Positions 28,373 to 36,715 of a DNA stretch of 64,000 bases are shown piece by piece (positions within the stretch are counted from its first letter, which is position 1; the number at the start of each line of letters is the position of its first letter). Made by a program: the position numbers and the translations under genes. Below the pieces are notes generated by a model, which was not told the origin of the DNA, made no database searches, and saw only the letters and a program-made list of their open reading frames with translations. Source of the DNA: Flavobacteriales bacterium (GTDB taxonomy: Bacteria; Bacteroidota; Bacteroidia; Flavobacteriales_F; PHOS-HE28); assembly GCA_016721005.1 (NCBI GenBank), contig JADKJM010000019.1, forward strand, positions 323,747-387,746. Direction: 5' to 3'.

Positions 28373-29253
28373 AGGGACCGGCGGCACTGATCATCCTGGT
28401 GCTTCTGTTCGCCTCCTGCAAGAGCGGCCGACGACTCCCCCTGATCCATCGGGACCTGCCCGCACGATCCGGGGATCGGATCATCGAACGCATGCTGGTC
28501 GCGGACACGATCCACCCGCGTTACTACACCGCCAAGGCGAATGTGGACATCGACATGGGCGGATCAAGTAGAGGATTCAAGGCACAGGTGAAAAGCGTTC
28601 GCGACAGCGCCGCCTGGATCAGCATCGTGCCGGCGCTCGGGATCGAAGTAGCGCGTATCGTGGTCACCCCGGACAGCGTGAAAATGCTGGACAAACTACA
28701 CGACCAGTATTTCCTCGGCGACTCCGCCCGAACGAAAAAGAAGTTCGGTCTGCAACCGGACCTGACCTTGCTCCAACAAGCGTTGCTGGGCACGGCGATC
28801 GGTCTTGATCCACAGGAGAGATACCGCAGTGATCGCGAGGACGGACAGTATGTGCTCACCAGCAAAGAGCGTCGAAAATTCATTCGCGCAGCGGAGGACA
28901 TCAGCCCAGGGGATACACTGGCTCATGATCGGGACATGGGCGAACGACGGTTGGAGCGCACGCTGCGCAAGGCCGAGGAGCGCGAAGCGATCGTGTTCCG
29001 GTACTGGGTGGAGCCGGAATCGTTCCGGGTCACGCGTGTGCAAATTGTCGACCTCGTACGCGACCAGACCGCGGATGTGCGTTATGAAGAGCGTGGGGGC
29101 ATCGAACAAGCCTACCTCCCCATCCGTATCCGGATCACCCTGAGCGAACCCGGCCGGTTGGCAAGTGGTCTGCTGGAGATCTCCCGTATCGACCTCGACG
29201 GACCTTTGCAGTTGAACTTCAAGATCCCGGAGAAGTATGAACCGATGCCATAG
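28369..29253 (+). CDS. DUF4292-like (LolB-fold) lipoprotein
   Basis: Lipoprotein signal MKGPAALIILVLLFASCKS. Position between a TPR protein and an M23 peptidase is the conserved Bacteroidota arrangement. ATG overlaps the upstream stop (ATGA). Confidence 0.55.
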   Translation: MKGPAALIILVLLFASCKSGRRLPLIHRDLPARSGDRIIERMLVADTIHPRYYTAKANVDIDMGGSSRGFKAQVKSVRDSAAWISIVPALGIEVARIVVTPDSVKMLDKLHDQYFLGDSARTKKKFGLQPDLTLLQQALLGTAIGLDPQERYRSDREDGQYVLTSKERRKFIRAAEDISPGDTLAHDRDMGERRLERTLRKAEEREAIVFRYWVEPESFRVTRVQIVDLVRDQTADVRYEERGGIEQAYLPIRIRITLSEPGRLASGLLEISRIDLDGPLQLNFKIPEKYEPMP

Positions 29254-30505
29254 AAGCCACGTTGTTCGTGGCTCGTTGTTCGGGCAGCGCTGGTGTAAGC
29301 GGGTCGCGCTGGTCCTATCCCTGCTCCTGTTCCTTATCACCGCGAACGGCCAGAGTCGTTCCAATCTGGAGAAGAAGCGAGAAGCGCTGGACAAGCAGAT
29401 CCGCACCACCACGACCTTGATCGAACAAGCGCGGAAGGAGCAGCGCGTGACGCAGGAGCAACTCCGGTTGCTGGAAAGCCAGATCGAAGCGCGTGCGCAA
29501 TTGATCCGCGCCATGGACAATGAAGTGCGCCAAGTGGATGATCGGATCACGGAGGATGAAGCCGCGATCGCATCGCTGAAGGATGACCTCGCCGAACTGC
29601 GGAAGGAGTATGCGCACATGGTGCAGTTCGCCTATCGCAACCGGAGCGGCTACGACCAACTCAGCTACCTCTTCGCATCGAACGGTTTCCAGCAGGCTTT
29701 CCGGCGTAGCCGCTACTTGAACCAGCTCGGCGCACAACGACTGCGGCAGGTACACCTCATCACCGGAACGCAGACCTCGCTAGCCGCCCGTGTTGAAGAA
29801 TTGCAACAACAGCGTAAGGCGAAGGCAAGCCTGTTGAGCGATCAAGTGCAGGAGAAACGCCGACTGGACACGGATCGCACCGGGCAACAGAAAGCTTTGA
29901 ACAGTTTGCGCAGCGAGGAAGGGCGTTTGAAGGAAACCCAACGCAAGCAGGAGAAACAGCGCCGCGAGCTGGACGCGGCCATTCGCAAAGCGATCGAGGA
30001 TGCGGTGAAGGTCAAGCCCTCGGCATCAGGTGCCGCAAAGCCCGGAAAGCTGGACATCAGCCTCACCCCGGAAGCGCGGGAACTCAACACCGACTTCGAG
30101 AAGAACAAAGGCAAACTGCCTTGGCCCGTGGAGAAGGGGGTGATCACCGGACGCTTCGGCAAGCAACCACACCCGGTGCTGAAGGGGATCATGATCGACA
30201 ACAATGGCATCGACATCACCACCGAGAAAGGCGCGAGCGTGCGCGCCTTGTTCCGGGGCGAGGTGAGCGGCGTGATCGTGCTGCCCGGCGCCGGCAAGGC
30301 GGTGATCGTGAGCCATGGGGTGTACCGTACCGTGTACAGCAACCTGCGCGATGTGAACGTGACCAAGGGGCAGAAACTGGATACCAAGCAGACCATCGGC
30401 ACCGTGAACACCGACGAGAATGGATCGGTGGCGCACATCGAGGTCTGGAAGATCACAAGCGACGGCCTGGTGAACGTGGACCCGTCCGGCTGGATCTTTC
30501 ATTAG
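29237..30505 (+). CDS. Peptidase M23 family murein endopeptidase with long N-terminal coiled coil (EnvC-like)
   Basis: Coiled-coil heptads (…LEKKREALDKQIRTTTTLIEQARKEQRV…) then M23/LytM core (…GIDITTEKGASVRALFRGEVSGVIVLPGAGKAVIVSHGVYRTVYSNL…). Confidence 0.8.
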   Translation: MNRCHRSHVVRGSLFGQRWCKRVALVLSLLLFLITANGQSRSNLEKKREALDKQIRTTTTLIEQARKEQRVTQEQLRLLESQIEARAQLIRAMDNEVRQVDDRITEDEAAIASLKDDLAELRKEYAHMVQFAYRNRSGYDQLSYLFASNGFQQAFRRSRYLNQLGAQRLRQVHLITGTQTSLAARVEELQQQRKAKASLLSDQVQEKRRLDTDRTGQQKALNSLRSEEGRLKETQRKQEKQRRELDAAIRKAIEDAVKVKPSASGAAKPGKLDISLTPEARELNTDFEKNKGKLPWPVEKGVITGRFGKQPHPVLKGIMIDNNGIDITTEKGASVRALFRGEVSGVIVLPGAGKAVIVSHGVYRTVYSNLRDVNVTKGQKLDTKQTIGTVNTDENGSVAHIEVWKITSDGLVNVDPSGWIFH

Positions 30506-30558
30506 TTCCTCGTGCTGTCCGGTTCTCTGCTCCTACCTTTCAACCTGATCAGACGCCC

Positions 30559-30789
30559 GTGAACACATTCCCGCTATCCATCCTGCTTGGGGTTATTGGC
30601 CCGTGGCAATTGGTCCTTTTTGTTGTTTTTCCTCTCGGCTTGGTCGGTCTTTGTGCGCTAGGCTTCGCGAGGTTTTCCAAGACCAAGCAGGCTCGCTGGG
30701 CGGTACTTGGCGCGATTTCCGGCGTACTATTTCTGCTGATGGTCATCGCTGCGTTCATGATCGTCAACGAAATGTCCGGGCGTCAATAG
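30559..30789 (+). CDS. TatA-like small membrane protein paralog (76 aa). N-terminal 20 aa nearly identical to TatA, then two extra hydrophobic segments instead of the amphipathic helix; GTG start.
   Basis: [21 protein letters not shown] versus Tat[21 protein letters not shown] (18/20 identical residues, DNA diverged synonymously). The frame is open from upstream, so the start is uncertain; GTG at 30559 aligns with the TatA initiator. Confidence 0.5.
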
Positions 30790-30917
30790 TCCGCTTGCCT
30801 TCTGTGGTGTCGTGGATCACGCCTCGCGGGTCTTCCGTTGAGCAAGTGACCTTGGTTGATCCGGGCCTTCGGTTAACAAGGCGCTACATTTGGCCCCGGA
30901 ACCAAGTCCATTCCCCA

Positions 30918-31112
30918 ATGAGCACTTTTCCCCTTTCAATCCTTCTCGGCATAGTCGGCCCTTGGCAGATCGTTCTGGTCGTGGTGGTGCTGCTGCTGCT
31001 TTTCGGCGGCAAGAAGATCCCCGAACTCATGCGCGGTCTTGGGCAGGGCCTGAACGAGTTCAAGAAGGCCAAGGACGGCGACCCGAACGAGAAGAAGGAC
31101 GAGAGCAAGTAG
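30918..31112 (+). CDS. tatA: Twin-arginine translocase subunit TatA/E
   Basis: 64 aa: TM helix, then [26 protein letters not shown] (TatA hinge and amphipathic helix consensus F-G-x-K-K-L/I-P … F-K-K-A), then an acidic tail. Confidence 0.85.
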
Positions 31113-31156
31113 CCTCTCTCACCGCGCGGCTCCATTGCGCGGCAGCCCGATAGCCC

Positions 31157-32557
31157 GTGAGCACGACCAGTAGTAGCACCGTCCCGGAAGCTCCGCCTCG
31201 CAGCGGCAGCGTAACGGCAGCGGTCAGTACAGCCCTTGAGAACGCGGAAACGAACAAGGACCTGAACGCCTTCCTTGAAGTATTCACGGAGAGCGCTTTG
31301 GAACACGCAACACGTGTGGATGAGCGCCGCCAAGCCGGTAACGCCGGTCCACTCTCAGGTGTGGTGCTGAGCATCAAGGACAACATCTGTTATAAGGACC
31401 ACCGCGTAGGCGCGGGCTCGAAGATCCTCGAGGGCTTCACTTCGCTGTACAGCGCCACAGTAGTGGAGCGACTCCTCGCGGCAGATGCCGTGATCCTGGG
31501 TCGCACCAATTGCGACGAGTTCGCGATGGGCAGCAGCAACGAGAACAGCGCCTACGGCAACGTCCTGAATCCGGTGGACCGCACGAAGGTCCCCGGCGGA
31601 AGCAGTGGTGGGGCGGCAGCTAGCGTGGCGGCAGGTATCGTGCATGTCGCGCTCGGTTCGGATACCGGTGGAAGTATTCGTCAACCAGCGTCGTTCACGG
31701 GGACCGTCGGGTTCAAGCCCACCTATGGCCGGGTGAGTCGCTATGGTCTCATCGCCTTTGCCAGCAGCTTTGATCAGATCGGTCCGTTCGCGCGCAACGT
31801 GGAGGATGTCGCCGCGACGTACACTGCGATCGCTGGCCACGATCCGAAGGATGGGACCACGAGCAAACGACCAGTTGTACCCATTTCACTGGATCATCCG
31901 GGCAAACTGCGTATCGGCTATTTCCGCGAAGGCCTTGAGCGCGCAGGCATGGACCCGGAGATCGTGGCGCACATGCAGGCGCAGATCGATCGCTTGAAGA
32001 AGGATGGCCACACGGTGGAGCCGATCGATGTGCCTTTGATCGATCACCAAGTGCCGACGTATTACATCCTCGCCACCGCAGAGGCCAGCAGCAACCTCGC
32101 ACGTTTCGATGGCATCCACTTCGGTCACCGCAGTAAAGCCGCGAAGGGGGTGGAAGAGACCTACCGCTTGAGTCGCACGGAAGGCTTCGGCCCCGAAGTG
32201 AAACGCAGGATCCTGCTCGGGACCTTCGTGCTCAGCGCCGGTTACTACGATGCTTACTACGGTCAGGCACAGCGCGTGCGACGCATCATCCGCAACCACA
32301 CGCTGGCCGCTTTTGAGAAGTATGACCTGCTCATGGGACCCACCTGTCCGACCACGGCCTTCGCGCACGGCGCCATCACCGATCCGGTGGCCATGTACCT
32401 ACAGGATATCTTTACGGTGCAAGCGAACCTCGCAGGCGTACCCGCGATCAGTTTGCCCACTGGAACGCATAGCAACGGCTTGCCATTCGGGATGCATGTG
32501 ATGGCGAAGCCTTTCGATGAGGGTCGGTTGCTCGCTGCAGCAAAGACCCTTTTCTAG
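31157..32557 (+). CDS. gatA: Asp-tRNA(Asn)/Glu-tRNA(Gln) amidotransferase subunit A
   Basis: Amidase signature GGSSGGAAASVAAGIVHVALGSDTGGSIRQPA; length 466 aa. Confidence 0.85.
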   Translation: MSTTSSSTVPEAPPRSGSVTAAVSTALENAETNKDLNAFLEVFTESALEHATRVDERRQAGNAGPLSGVVLSIKDNICYKDHRVGAGSKILEGFTSLYSATVVERLLAADAVILGRTNCDEFAMGSSNENSAYGNVLNPVDRTKVPGGSSGGAAASVAAGIVHVALGSDTGGSIRQPASFTGTVGFKPTYGRVSRYGLIAFASSFDQIGPFARNVEDVAATYTAIAGHDPKDGTTSKRPVVPISLDHPGKLRIGYFREGLERAGMDPEIVAHMQAQIDRLKKDGHTVEPIDVPLIDHQVPTYYILATAEASSNLARFDGIHFGHRSKAAKGVEETYRLSRTEGFGPEVKRRILLGTFVLSAGYYDAYYGQAQRVRRIIRNHTLAAFEKYDLLMGPTCPTTAFAHGAITDPVAMYLQDIFTVQANLAGVPAISLPTGTHSNGLPFGMHVMAKPFDEGRLLAAAKTLF

Positions 32558-32634
32558 CGTACACATTCAGGTGTGAACAGCGCGCCCGCATACCACGGGG
32601 CTCCTTCTTGCGTAATACGGGTAACTTCGTCGCC

Positions 32635-34554: not shown

Positions 34555-34565
34555 ACCAGAACACC

Positions 34566-35546
34566 ATGCGCCATGCGATCGGCTTTCTGCTCGTGTGTGC
34601 AAGCAGCGCTCTTCTCCCGTTCTTCACTTCAGCGCAGAACCTAGTGCCCAACGGTGGGTTTGAGGAATACACTGTCGATTGCACATTCGGGATCGGATTC
34701 TATGGATTGGCGGATTGGCGCTACTTGAACTGCGGAAATTCTCCAGGGCTTGCGCGCGCGTGCAACAATAACACTGGCAATGGTGGTGGTGTTCCTCAGA
34801 GTGGGTTAGGGTATCAGTATGCACATGAAGGGGATGGGTTCATTATGACAGAACCGTACTTCTCGAATGCGCAAAGCGGCCTCCCGGATGCCAATCCACA
34901 GACATACGCCAACGTGGACCTCGTACAGTCCTTGACCGCCGGGCAACGCTATTGTTTGCGGTTGTGGATGAACATGGCTGACTCATCCTGCTATCGTACT
35001 GACACCTTCCATGCCTATGTCGGTTACGGCATTCCCACCCTGTGCAATTATGCGGATACCGCATGGGACACCTATGCCACGGCCACGTGGGACATCAGCA
35101 TTGTGGATACCGCCGAATGGACCTTGCTTGAAAGCGAGTTCATCGCCAATGGTGGGGAGACCAACCTTACACTCGGTGCTTTCCAGTTCGATGCCGAGAT
35201 CAACAGCGTATTCCTTGCTGATCATAGCAGCTTGTTCGGTGCGCTTGTCGCGGCATACTACATAGATGATGTGGAACTCTGGGCCTGCCAAGTGGGTGTG
35301 GAGGAAGTGAACAGCAACAACGCGCTTGCGCTTTTCCCGGACCCCGCTGACCAATGGGTCACCATGTCCTATTCGGGGGTCGATGTGGTGGGTGCCGCTC
35401 TATCCAACACGGTTGGACAGGATGTGACCCCGAAGAGTTGGGGCGCCACCACCTTATACCATTTGGAACTAAGAGATCGCCCAAAGGTGCCGTGCGATGT
35501 TGAAGTAGTCGAAGTTGCAGATGGACTTTACCTCAGTGGGGCTTAG
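34566..35546 (+). pseudogene. Secreted T9SS cargo protein gene interrupted inside its C-terminal sorting domain by an IS630-like element. Native ORF ends at 35456; the in-window reading continues into IS sequence.
   Basis: Signal peptide MRHAIGFLLVCASSALLPFFTSAQ. C-terminal …LALFPDPADQWVTMSYSG…VGQDVTPKSWGATT is the N-terminal half of a type-A Por_Secre_tail. The matching end of the domain lies at 36599..36715 beyond the IS. Confidence 0.65.
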
Positions 35547-36598
35547 TGAGTGGACCTGCTTGGAGTCGCTGAGTTGAGCGGGGGTTTCGAAGGTCATGTT
35601 GGGAGGCGCGTTGAAGCGCCACCAGCTTGGAGTTGGGGTGCGATGGGGGAGGAACAATGGGCGCCGTTGAGCGGCCAACTGAGGTGCTTGGTTTTGTGGA
35701 AAGCACCGTTGTCCACGGATCTTGAGCTCTTCGGGTCGATGCGTTGCAATGAGGAAGATCGGAAGGTGTAGCCAGAACAACAGGGTAGTTCCAATTGGAA
35801 ATTATCGCCCGATATAGGCGAGTACGCGCCGAAGACATAGGTGTATTGGAAGACCTGTTGGAAAGCACATACCGGCTTGACCCCCTTTGGCCGATCCCTT
35901 ACCAGCACGGGTGAAAAGGCCGAAGCGGCTCTCATCACAATACAGGTTCACACTGGAGCAGCCCGGCGGAGGGCGGGTGGTCAACTCGAACAGAGTTGCT
36001 CGAAGTTTTTTAAAAGCCGTGATGGCCTCCGGGATCCTTCTTCACATGTGACTTGCGGGCGACCTTACACTGGGCTCCATAGTTGCGCTTGACGAACTTG
36101 TTCATCGTGGAGTAGTTGACCTCTTCATTGAACCGCTTGTTGAACCACGCCAACAATTCAGTGAAGCCCCGCAGACCGTTGCCCGGTTCACGCAACTTCA
36201 AACGCAAGGCCTCACGCTGATCAGGTTTGATCACGCTGGGCCGGTTCCCTTTCCAGTTGTGCGAAAGCAACCCGGCCAGCCCTCCTTGGATATATGCGTT
36301 GCGCCATTTCATGGCGCTGCCCGCATCCACGCCCAGCGCCTTGGCAACAGCATGCTTGGAGATACCTTCCTGTTCATGCTCTTTGTAGAGGATCAATACT
36401 CGGACCCGACTACGCATGGTCTCGGTATTGACGCGCCTGAGCTCCCGGCGCAACGTCACCATGTCCTCTTTGATATCGAACCTTTGGGATTGGCCATCTG
36501 CCCTGTGTTTTTCGCCACAGATCGAACCACCGATCAAACGATCAAGAGCTTCAGGAAAATGATATCAACATTGGAGGACAATCATATTCCAAATGGTA
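35457..36598 (-). mobile_element. IS630/Tc1-mariner-family insertion sequence, 1,142 bp, with a degraded transposase gene
   Basis: Perfect 12-bp terminal inverted repeats TACCATTTGGAA (35457..35468) and TTCCAAATGGTA (36587..36598), flanked by direct TTA (35454..35456 and 36599..36601; TA-containing target duplication). Internal minus-strand IS630 orfA-like N-terminus plus frameshifted DDE_3-like fragments. Confidence 0.75.
35594..36537 (-). pseudogene. IS630-family transposase, frameshifted/degraded
   Basis: ORF 36010..36537 (-) carries the HTH/orfA part (…RSRVRVLILYKEHEQEGISKHAVAKALGV…WRNAYIQGGLAGL…SHVKKDP). Downstream DDE_3-like pieces lie in other frames: 35802..35984 (…NLYCDESRFGLFTRAGKG…) and 35594..35938 (…YTYVFGAYSPISGDNFQLELP…VDNGAFHKTKH…). 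Confidence 0.65.
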
Positions 36599-36715
36599 TT
36601 ACTCCCGGACAGGCAAGCCTTGGATGTATCCAGCTTGCCCGCCGGTGCTTATCTCCTGAGCGTTCGCACCAAGGATGGTAACCTGTTGTCGCGCCGCTTG
36701 GTGATCCAGCACTAG
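36599..36715 (+). other. Displaced 3' fragment encoding the last 38 aa of the T9SS C-terminal sorting domain of gene 34566
   Basis: LLPDRQALDVSSLPAGAYLLSVRTKDGNLLSRRLVIQH* is the canonical end of a Por_Secre_tail domain. It is in frame with 34566..35456 once the IS and one TTA copy are removed. Confidence 0.7.

Follow-up and report, generated by a model that had tools for sequence, protein, structure and literature searches.

The 64,000-nt stretch of DNA analysed here, referred to as the window, contains a canonical tatA gene preceded on the same strand by a short open reading frame, X, whose product begins like TatA and continues as something else. This arrangement raises the questions of whether X is a gene at all, how it came to share its beginning with tatA, and whether its product acts on the Tat pathway. 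In NCBI, X (MBL0129313.1) is named only 'hypothetical protein IPP83_18115'.

The genes around X follow one another on the plus strand in the order TPR protein, DUF4292, M23 peptidase, X, tatA, gatA and SLT/LysM protein (Table 1). Peptidase_M23 (Pfam) is recorded on the identical gene in three of the loci compared (L001, L044 and L045; L numbers denote loci, and P numbers proteins of the X family). The tatA gene starts after a spacing of 128 nt and was rightly called canonical by the first-pass annotation (Pfam TatA_B_E 2.6e-17; TIGR01411 8.9e-17; 62 bits), whose translation of X from a GTG as 76 codons plus stop is likewise recovered. The order M23-tatA-gatA is kept in most of those among the 35 related loci whose sequence extends far enough, and with an EnvC-like M23 gene it is unchanged down to 40% M23 identity (window positions 29237-32557 and loci L002-L033). 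In E. coli, the amidases activated by EnvC are themselves Tat substrates, and the linkage of M23, tatA and gatA may be functional. A heuristic hydropathy screen of the window for a tatC candidate, taken as a six-helix protein of about 250 aa, returned none, and Rfam gave no match at E≤1 across positions 29500-32000. Other indels distinguish the window from L002: the latter has about 1.17 kb more between gatA and the SLT/LysM gene (window 32542-32570), and the window has about 2.1 kb (34565-36714) where L002 has about 0.4 kb.

Table 1. Features at the junction between the M23 peptidase gene and gatA (positions in the window)
Feature	Position	Strand	Basis or remark
M23 peptidase, EnvC-like, with long N-terminal coiled coil	29237..30505	+	ORF; stop 53 nt upstream of X
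Candidate degenerate copy of the tatA -7 box, TACCTTTC	30534..30541	+	17 nt upstream of the X start codon; consensus TAnnTTTG
ORF X, 76-aa small membrane protein	30559..30789	+	GTG start; homologues P0122, P0123, P0125, P0126
Module of X homologous to TatA, codons 1-28	30559..30642	+	N-tail and transmembrane helix with G14-P15-W16-Q17; hhalign
X-specific part, codons 29-76	30643..30786	+	helix 1 extension LVGL, S40-K41-T42-K43 loop, W47, helix 2 with G51xxxG55, tail
Non-coding relic, last ~38 nt of the M23 gene including TGA	30805..30842	+	local alignments to M23 3' ends of relatives
tatA -7 promoter box, TACATTTG	30885..30892	+	25 nt upstream of ATG; matches consensus TAnnTTTG
tatA, canonical, 64 aa, clade-typical 9-residue N-terminal extension	30918..31112	+	Pfam and TIGR01411
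gatA, amidase family, conserved downstream neighbour	31157..32557	+	ORF and context in related loci

Extent of the homology between X and TatA

Alignment of the first 20 residues of X and TatA gives 16 identities, not the 18 counted in the first-pass annotation, and the four differences (N2S, V12I, I13V and L18I) are all conservative. The resemblance itself is far above chance (tblastn E 3e-9). Over the same 20 codons, 45 of the 60 nucleotides are identical, and over codons 2-20 pS reaches 0.90 (14 of about 15.5 synonymous sites differ) with a pN of 0.12, so that both N-termini must have been held for long by selection at the protein level since their separation. The divergence of the DNA is thus synonymous, as had been proposed. 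Comparison of the X-family profile with a profile of 27 TatA proteins of the clade by hhalign aligned residues 1-28 of X with residues 1-28 of TatA (probability 97.6%, E 3.8e-12). The homology is therefore longer than the 20 residues originally noticed: it covers the N-tail and the entire transmembrane helix, and stops exactly at the FGGKK hinge.

At the hinge position X reads L28-V-G-L-C-A-L-G-F where TatA reads L28-F-G-G-K-K, and the later F39-S-K-T-K of X has no profile match to the TatA hinge. Residues 21-76 of X gave no hhalign signal against TatA. The amphipathic helix is absent as well, the second helix being uniformly hydrophobic by Kyte-Doolittle analysis and in the AlphaFold2 model, with no hhalign match. 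In Pfam and NCBIfam, X has no Tat match (TatA_B_E, TIGR01410, TIGR01411) even at E≤10; its specific half has no match in Pfam, NCBIfam or PADLOC, and blastn and tblastn found no DNA source for it in 45 loci or elsewhere in the window. Descent of this half from frame-shifted or diverged TatA was considered and rejected on the same hhalign, blastn and tblastn results; it could be captured sequence or a TatA remainder diverged beyond recognition. Judged by these profile comparisons, X is derived from TatA yet lies outside the TatA/B/E family, as it has neither hinge nor amphipathic helix and does not reach the family cut-off.

Two short internal similarities were seen. An in-phase match of 17/21 nt links codons 25-31 of X (30633-30653, PLGLVGL) to codons 9-16 of tatA (30944-30964, LLGIVGPW), and X has the tripeptide FPL twice, at residues 4-6 and 24-26. 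The 17/21-nt match, which lacks profile support, may be the trace of a second copy of the N-tail inside helix 1, or chance.

The Kyte-Doolittle profile of X shows two hydrophobic blocks, roughly at residues 4-34 and 51-68. AlphaFold2, run on the five-sequence alignment of the family, modelled a helical hairpin with helices at residues 4-39 and 43-75 and moderate confidence (mean pLDDT 68.7). X is thus predicted to be a two-helix hairpin: the TatA-type helix extends as far as about residue 36-39, and then come the short S-K-T-K loop and a new helix from about residue 43/47 to 70. From Q17 to the loop, helix 1 counts about 20 residues, compared with about 12 in TatA. The first-pass annotation was right about the missing hinge and amphipathic helix, but its two additional hydrophobic segments reduce to one new helix of two in total. 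The loop carries the basic residues R38, K41, K43 and R46, from which the positive-inside rule predicts that the N-terminus lies outside, the loop inside and the C-terminus outside; the model would then have an N-out/C-out topology.

That X is a TatA-derived membrane protein, as originally suggested, agrees with these results. A functional translocase subunit of the TatB/TatE type, the variant first offered, is by far harder to accept. X does share the N-tail, the helix and the polar residue of TatA and stands in tandem with tatA, but it lacks the F-G-x-K-K hinge, the amphipathic helix and all three family matches, its profile similarity ends at residue 28, and a true tandem TatA paralogue, present in L011, looks quite different. 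We regard this reading as very improbable.

Family, distribution and selection

An exhaustive HMMER search of 1.84 billion representatives returned three homologues of X at E values of 1e-10 to 1e-13, namely P0122 (76 aa, 55% identity), P0123 (67 aa, 62%) and P0125 (104 aa, 41%), along with one spurious repeat protein. P0126 came from an additional profile search; it probably starts at an internal Met, which would give a protein of 78 aa. A word-indexed protein search with X alone found X itself only, and a metagenome contig scan with the X-family motif found only the same JGI contig. The family (P0001/P0127, P0122, P0126, P0123 and P0125) amounts to 5 clusters among 5.8 billion proteins, predicted hairpins of about 67-80 aa that have P25 and L-V-G-L and are encoded beside the 3' end of an EnvC-like M23 gene.

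Residues L28, V29, L31, F36, S40-K41-T42-K43, W47, G51 and A65 are invariant in the five members, and four of the five have the GxxxG motif in helix 2. Pairwise dN/dS among the five lineages ranges from 0.13 to 0.36, and dS is saturated in most pairs. With synonymous sites saturated both between X and TatA and among the X orthologues, X is an old paralogue and not a fresh duplication, in line with the first-pass annotation. The GTG at 30559 is the first in-frame start after the M23 stop at 30505, and the homologues have an ATG at the aligned position. The protein is identical in four assemblies of the window species (99.1-99.8% nucleotide identity). The GC3 of the X gene is 0.64, compared with 0.70-0.82 for the neighbouring genes.

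In 35/35 related GTDB species representatives, retrieved through the M23 protein, tblastn found no X. These are Flavobacteriales MAGs, many of them from activated sludge. In most of the X-less loci that reach that far, tatA follows M23 after about 25-120 nt. The nearest X-less relative, L002 (93.5% DNA identity), carries 35 nt in place of the 367 nt found in the window (30510-30876). Since X is missing from all 35 genomes including L002, whatever it does is dispensable. The first-pass annotation had counted absence from all relatives, combined with a lack of expression, against its proposal; these representatives lack X, yet four other metagenomic lineages have it.

The order M23-X-tatA recurs in L037, in L040-L042 and in L038 as well as in the window. 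In L037 the 3' end of M23 is followed by X and then by tatA, and L038 shows full synteny (TPR, DUF4292, M23, X, a 63-aa ORF Y, tatA, gatA, SLT/LysM). On the 763-nt contig L039, X adjoins the M23 3' end in inverted orientation and no tatA is visible; the N-terminus of the divergent neighbour is unlike gatA. The X-bearing lineages fall into at least three sub-clades whose nearest sampled relatives lack X, the window beside L002, L037 and L040 beside L004, and L038 and L039 beside L010-L018.

ORF Y of L038 (L038:4382-4573) deserves separate mention. It begins with the N-tail and helix of the resident TatA (MGKLGVFELIMILIV...) and goes on, with neither hinge nor amphipathic helix, into a tail that is charged and rich in proline; a weak similarity (33-35%, E 0.002-0.007) links it to the full-length type 2 TatA of L027-L029. 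This locus thus holds three modules with a TatA N-terminus in tandem (X, Y and tatA).

A decaying duplicate, as X was first suspected to be, or an untranslated chance ORF would account for its absence from the 35 related genomes, the GTG start, the sub-consensus promoter box and the missing known domain. Such an ORF is, however, hardly expected to stay intact at similar length in five lineages that are 41-62% identical, with dN/dS of 0.13-0.36 at saturated dS, to keep invariant motifs, or to be identical in four assemblies of one species, and we consider this explanation highly unlikely. It is very probable that X is both derived from TatA and coding. X is a selectively maintained small inner-membrane protein, rare and dispensable.

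Origin at the junction of M23 and tatA

Between X and tatA lies a relic of the M23 gene (Table 1). It aligns to the M23 3' ends of L002, L004, L005, L021, L023, L030 and L037 with z values of 5-7 relative to shuffled sequences, and in every case the alignment keeps the register of the stop codon. The spacers separating X from tatA in L037, L040 and L038 have no detectable relic (z<1.5). From the relic it follows that the duplicated unit began inside M23.

The -7 box consensus of the Bacteroidota sigma-A factor is TAnnTTTG (PMC9723704). Such a box lies within 60 nt upstream of tatA in 23/29 loci, against 0.6% of random 60-nt segments. The candidate box in front of X, TACCTTTC, lacks the final G of the consensus; X is preceded by the same variant in L037 and L040, and by TACCTTGT in L038. 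We infer from these boxes that X would be expressed from a weakened promoter of its own. Together, the relic and the promoter copy indicate a duplicated unit that ran from inside M23 through the promoter into tatA.

Most probably, a tandem duplication took in the last ~38 nt of M23, the promoter of tatA and no fewer than 28 codons from the start of that gene. In the upstream copy the N-tail and helix of TatA were kept, and an elongated helix 1, the S-K-T-K loop and a second helix take the place of the hinge and amphipathic helix. Direct repeats on either side make X easy to lose by recombination, and such loss would explain its patchy presence.

In other genomes, too, this junction is prone to recombination. 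L013 carries a 213-nt direct repeat of the M23 3' end (L013:6970-7182 and L013:8381-8593, 95% identity) flanking a low-GC insert of about 1.2 kb. This insertion is independent of X, but it occupies the same site and is likewise accompanied by a duplicated M23 end; it holds a reverse-strand gene of 262 aa that to us looks PhzF-like. In L014 and L016, an additional 3-6 kb separate M23 from tatA. L044, from the same species as the window (99.6%), shows no differences in X or its spacers; in the 3' half of tatA (L044:3360-3554, corresponding to window 30990-31087) it has nine clustered differences that are L002-like by eye. These alleles suggest inter-species recombination inside tatA.

Alternatively, X may have come into the window species recently, as a cassette transferred by homologous recombination from another member of the clade, an origin that fits either of the functional readings discussed below. 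The absence of X from L002 at 93.5% identity, with a clean replacement of 35 nt by 367 nt, would be expected from such a transfer, as would the lower GC3 of X; the tatA alleles of L044 indicate that recombination across species occurs here, the comparison of L037 with L040 reveals a mosaic (see below), and L013 has received an independent insertion at the same spot with its 213-nt M23 duplication. However, relative to L002 the flanks of the insertion show no clear excess of divergence over the 93.5% background, the X orthologues have diverged about as much as the host genes, and the M23 relic and promoter copy fit duplication in situ, followed by repeat-mediated loss, equally well. A recent transfer is possible but on the unlikely side.

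X is a clean, datable case of gene birth, through a partial duplication that brought with it a promoter and a module for membrane insertion; the flanking repeats explain the patchiness.

Possible roles of X and comparison with known systems

TatA owes its function to the coupling of an unusually short transmembrane helix with an amphipathic one, and its recruitment to TatC is still under debate. The Pfam TatA_B_E model starts at residue 13 of the window TatA, which implies that TatA of this clade has an N-terminal extension of about 9 residues relative to TatA of the E. coli type. In the extension ahead of G-P-W-Q, encoded in the window at 30918-30953, residues P5, L6, S7, I8 and L9 are nearly invariant and L10 and G11 invariant. 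Two types of N-tail occur in the clade, type 1 (MSxxPLSILLGxxGPWQ, with an H variant) and the short type 2 (MGKLGVxE). L011 has two complete tandem tatA paralogues between M23 and gatA (L011:7235-7396 and L011:7472-7666), the first of short type 2 (MGKMGVME..., 53 aa) and the second of extended type 1 (64 aa); each of the other genomes of the clade has one TatA type only.

In the window, the N-tails of X and TatA are both of type 1 (16/20). In L038 both are of the short type 2 (MGAKLGIME in X and MFGGKFGIME in TatA) and 19/21 nt are identical by eye, which suggests recent gene conversion. In L037 and L040, X has an N-tail of the Q type and the resident TatA one of the H type, with 9-11/20 identities. 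Strict co-evolution of the two N-tails was rejected, as it fails in L037 and L040 and as the H-type TatA N-tail is also found in the X-less loci L004 and L016.

L037:1-738 and L040:40-800 differ in a mosaic fashion: identity is 96% over the 3' end of M23, 92% over the 172-nt spacer that separates X from tatA, and about 100% over the 3' end of tatA and the sequence downstream of it. X and the TatA helix module are the two strongly diverged patches: pN is about 0.23 over codons 1-64 of X, and 0.31 over codons 2-28 of TatA against 0.01 over the rest of TatA. Synonymous divergence is raised in both patches too, so that recombination, not selection, may be the cause. In the same comparison the non-coding spacer has changed less than the synonymous sites in the genes on either side of it, which points to recombination or to a constrained non-coding element.

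Position 8 of E. coli TatA (Q8) and TatB (E8) contacts the polar cluster of TatC, and H, K and S variants of this position occur in other species (PMC5201420). Its equivalent in X, Q17, aligns with the invariant Q17 of the clade TatA; the five X members have Q, Q, Q, E and N here. Helix 1 of X hence would keep the features, Q17 included, that TatA-family helices use for docking on TatC and on one another, and would contact TatC or TatA. Our preferred reading, to which we assign a probability of roughly 0.35-0.4, is that X is a TatA-derived accessory or decoy membrane protein acting on Tat. X would enter the TM5/6 polar-cluster site of TatC or the oligomers of TatA; it could not do the job of TatA, as it lacks the unit of short helix, hinge and amphipathic helix, and would act as an accessory, placeholder or decoy that tunes assembly of the Tat translocon.

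Several observations speak for this action on Tat. The homology is restricted to TatA residues 1-28 with the polar residue retained, selection and invariant motifs mark the family, the M23-X-tatA order recurs, and the N-tail of X coarsely follows the type of the resident TatA in the window and in L038. X and the TatA helix patch have co-diverged between L037 and L040 in a background that is 92-100% identical. The duplicated promoter box, the M23 relic and the hairpin seen by both AlphaFold2 and hydropathy are consistent with it. On the other side, the family is extremely rare and missing from the 35 related species genomes, matching N-tails can be explained by neutral gene conversion between tandem repeats, and in L037 and L040 the N-tail of X resembles that of TatA at only 9-11 of 20 positions. 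The inverted homologue of L039 has no visible tatA, the heuristic scan of the window found no tatC, and the start codon is GTG, the box lacks its final G and the pLDDT is only 68.7. As far as sequence patterns go, the clues from the N-tail, the polar residue and co-divergence favour a functional link to Tat, and the regulator of Tat assembly suggested in the first-pass annotation would be a reasonable form of it.

The main competing explanation is that the 5' module of tatA was captured merely for its promoter, its start site and a helix acting as an N-out signal anchor, and that the role of X is unrelated to Tat; X could then work for the neighbouring EnvC-like M23 peptidase or for the cell envelope, or be a small membrane protein of a generic kind. 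No relative of the X-specific half turned up in any search, and the sole association shared by all five lineages is that with the 3' end of M23, including the inverted L039 with no visible tatA. Helix 1 is of normal length (about 20 residues after Q17), so the short-helix property of TatA is lost, and the N-tail does not track TatA in L037 and L040. Yet the N-tail and polar residue are under strong purifying selection (pN 0.12 against pS 0.90), where a mere anchor would tolerate more change, the N-tail of X in L038 is of the resident TatA type, and X and the TatA helix module have co-diverged between L037 and L040. Capture for a role outside Tat is a serious possibility, although short of probable.

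Returning to action on Tat, a more specific form is that X is a 'TatA helix-only' decoy or placeholder, whose helix 1 would control translocon assembly by sitting where TatA and TatB dock on TatC, or by capping the oligomers of TatA, the N-tail being kept compatible with the resident TatA/TatC by selection or gene conversion. In this detail the proposal is doubtful; if it were true, a Tat subunit would have given rise to a small protein dedicated to regulating the Tat pathway, the first of its kind. X is in any case a natural protein that keeps only the docking helix and polar residue of TatA, with the working part swapped for an ordinary second helix. This makes it a ready-made probe or competitor for TatA and TatB binding sites, and it would be a candidate for a type of Tat regulator that has not yet been described.

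Among known systems, the small hydrophobic proteins AcrZ and MgrB modulate larger membrane complexes, AcrZ with AcrB and MgrB with PhoQ. By analogy, X may resemble them in size, membrane location and the proposed binding to a larger machine within the membrane; they have no homology to X and, to our knowledge, neither is derived from a subunit of its target. In Providencia stuartii, an N-terminal extension of 8 residues blocks binding of pro-TatA to TatC until it is removed by the rhomboid AarA (PMC3712462). X and the clade TatA likewise have a TatA-type helix behind an N-terminal extension (about 9 residues here). Unlike X, pro-TatA is a full TatA, and the likeness of the extensions is one of position and length.

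Tandem TatA paralogues, such as those of L011 and TatA1/TatA2 of Campylobacter jejuni (PMC4148689), are like X products of tatA duplication. Such paralogues keep the complete TatA architecture, whereas X retains the first helix only. TatB (TIGR01410) is comparable to X in being derived from the TatA family, encoded by tatA and equipped with a polar equivalent of position 8, and the X of L038 has E there as TatB does; TatB, however, keeps the hinge, the amphipathic helix and a long cytoplasmic tail, all of which X lacks. TatA and TatE (PF02416, TIGR01411; specifically the type 1 TatA of the clade) have in common with X the homologous residues 1-28, the promoter box, the strand and the locus. 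X differs from them in lacking the FGGKK hinge, the amphipathic helix and the charged tail, and in having instead a helix 1 of full membrane-spanning length followed by a second helix.
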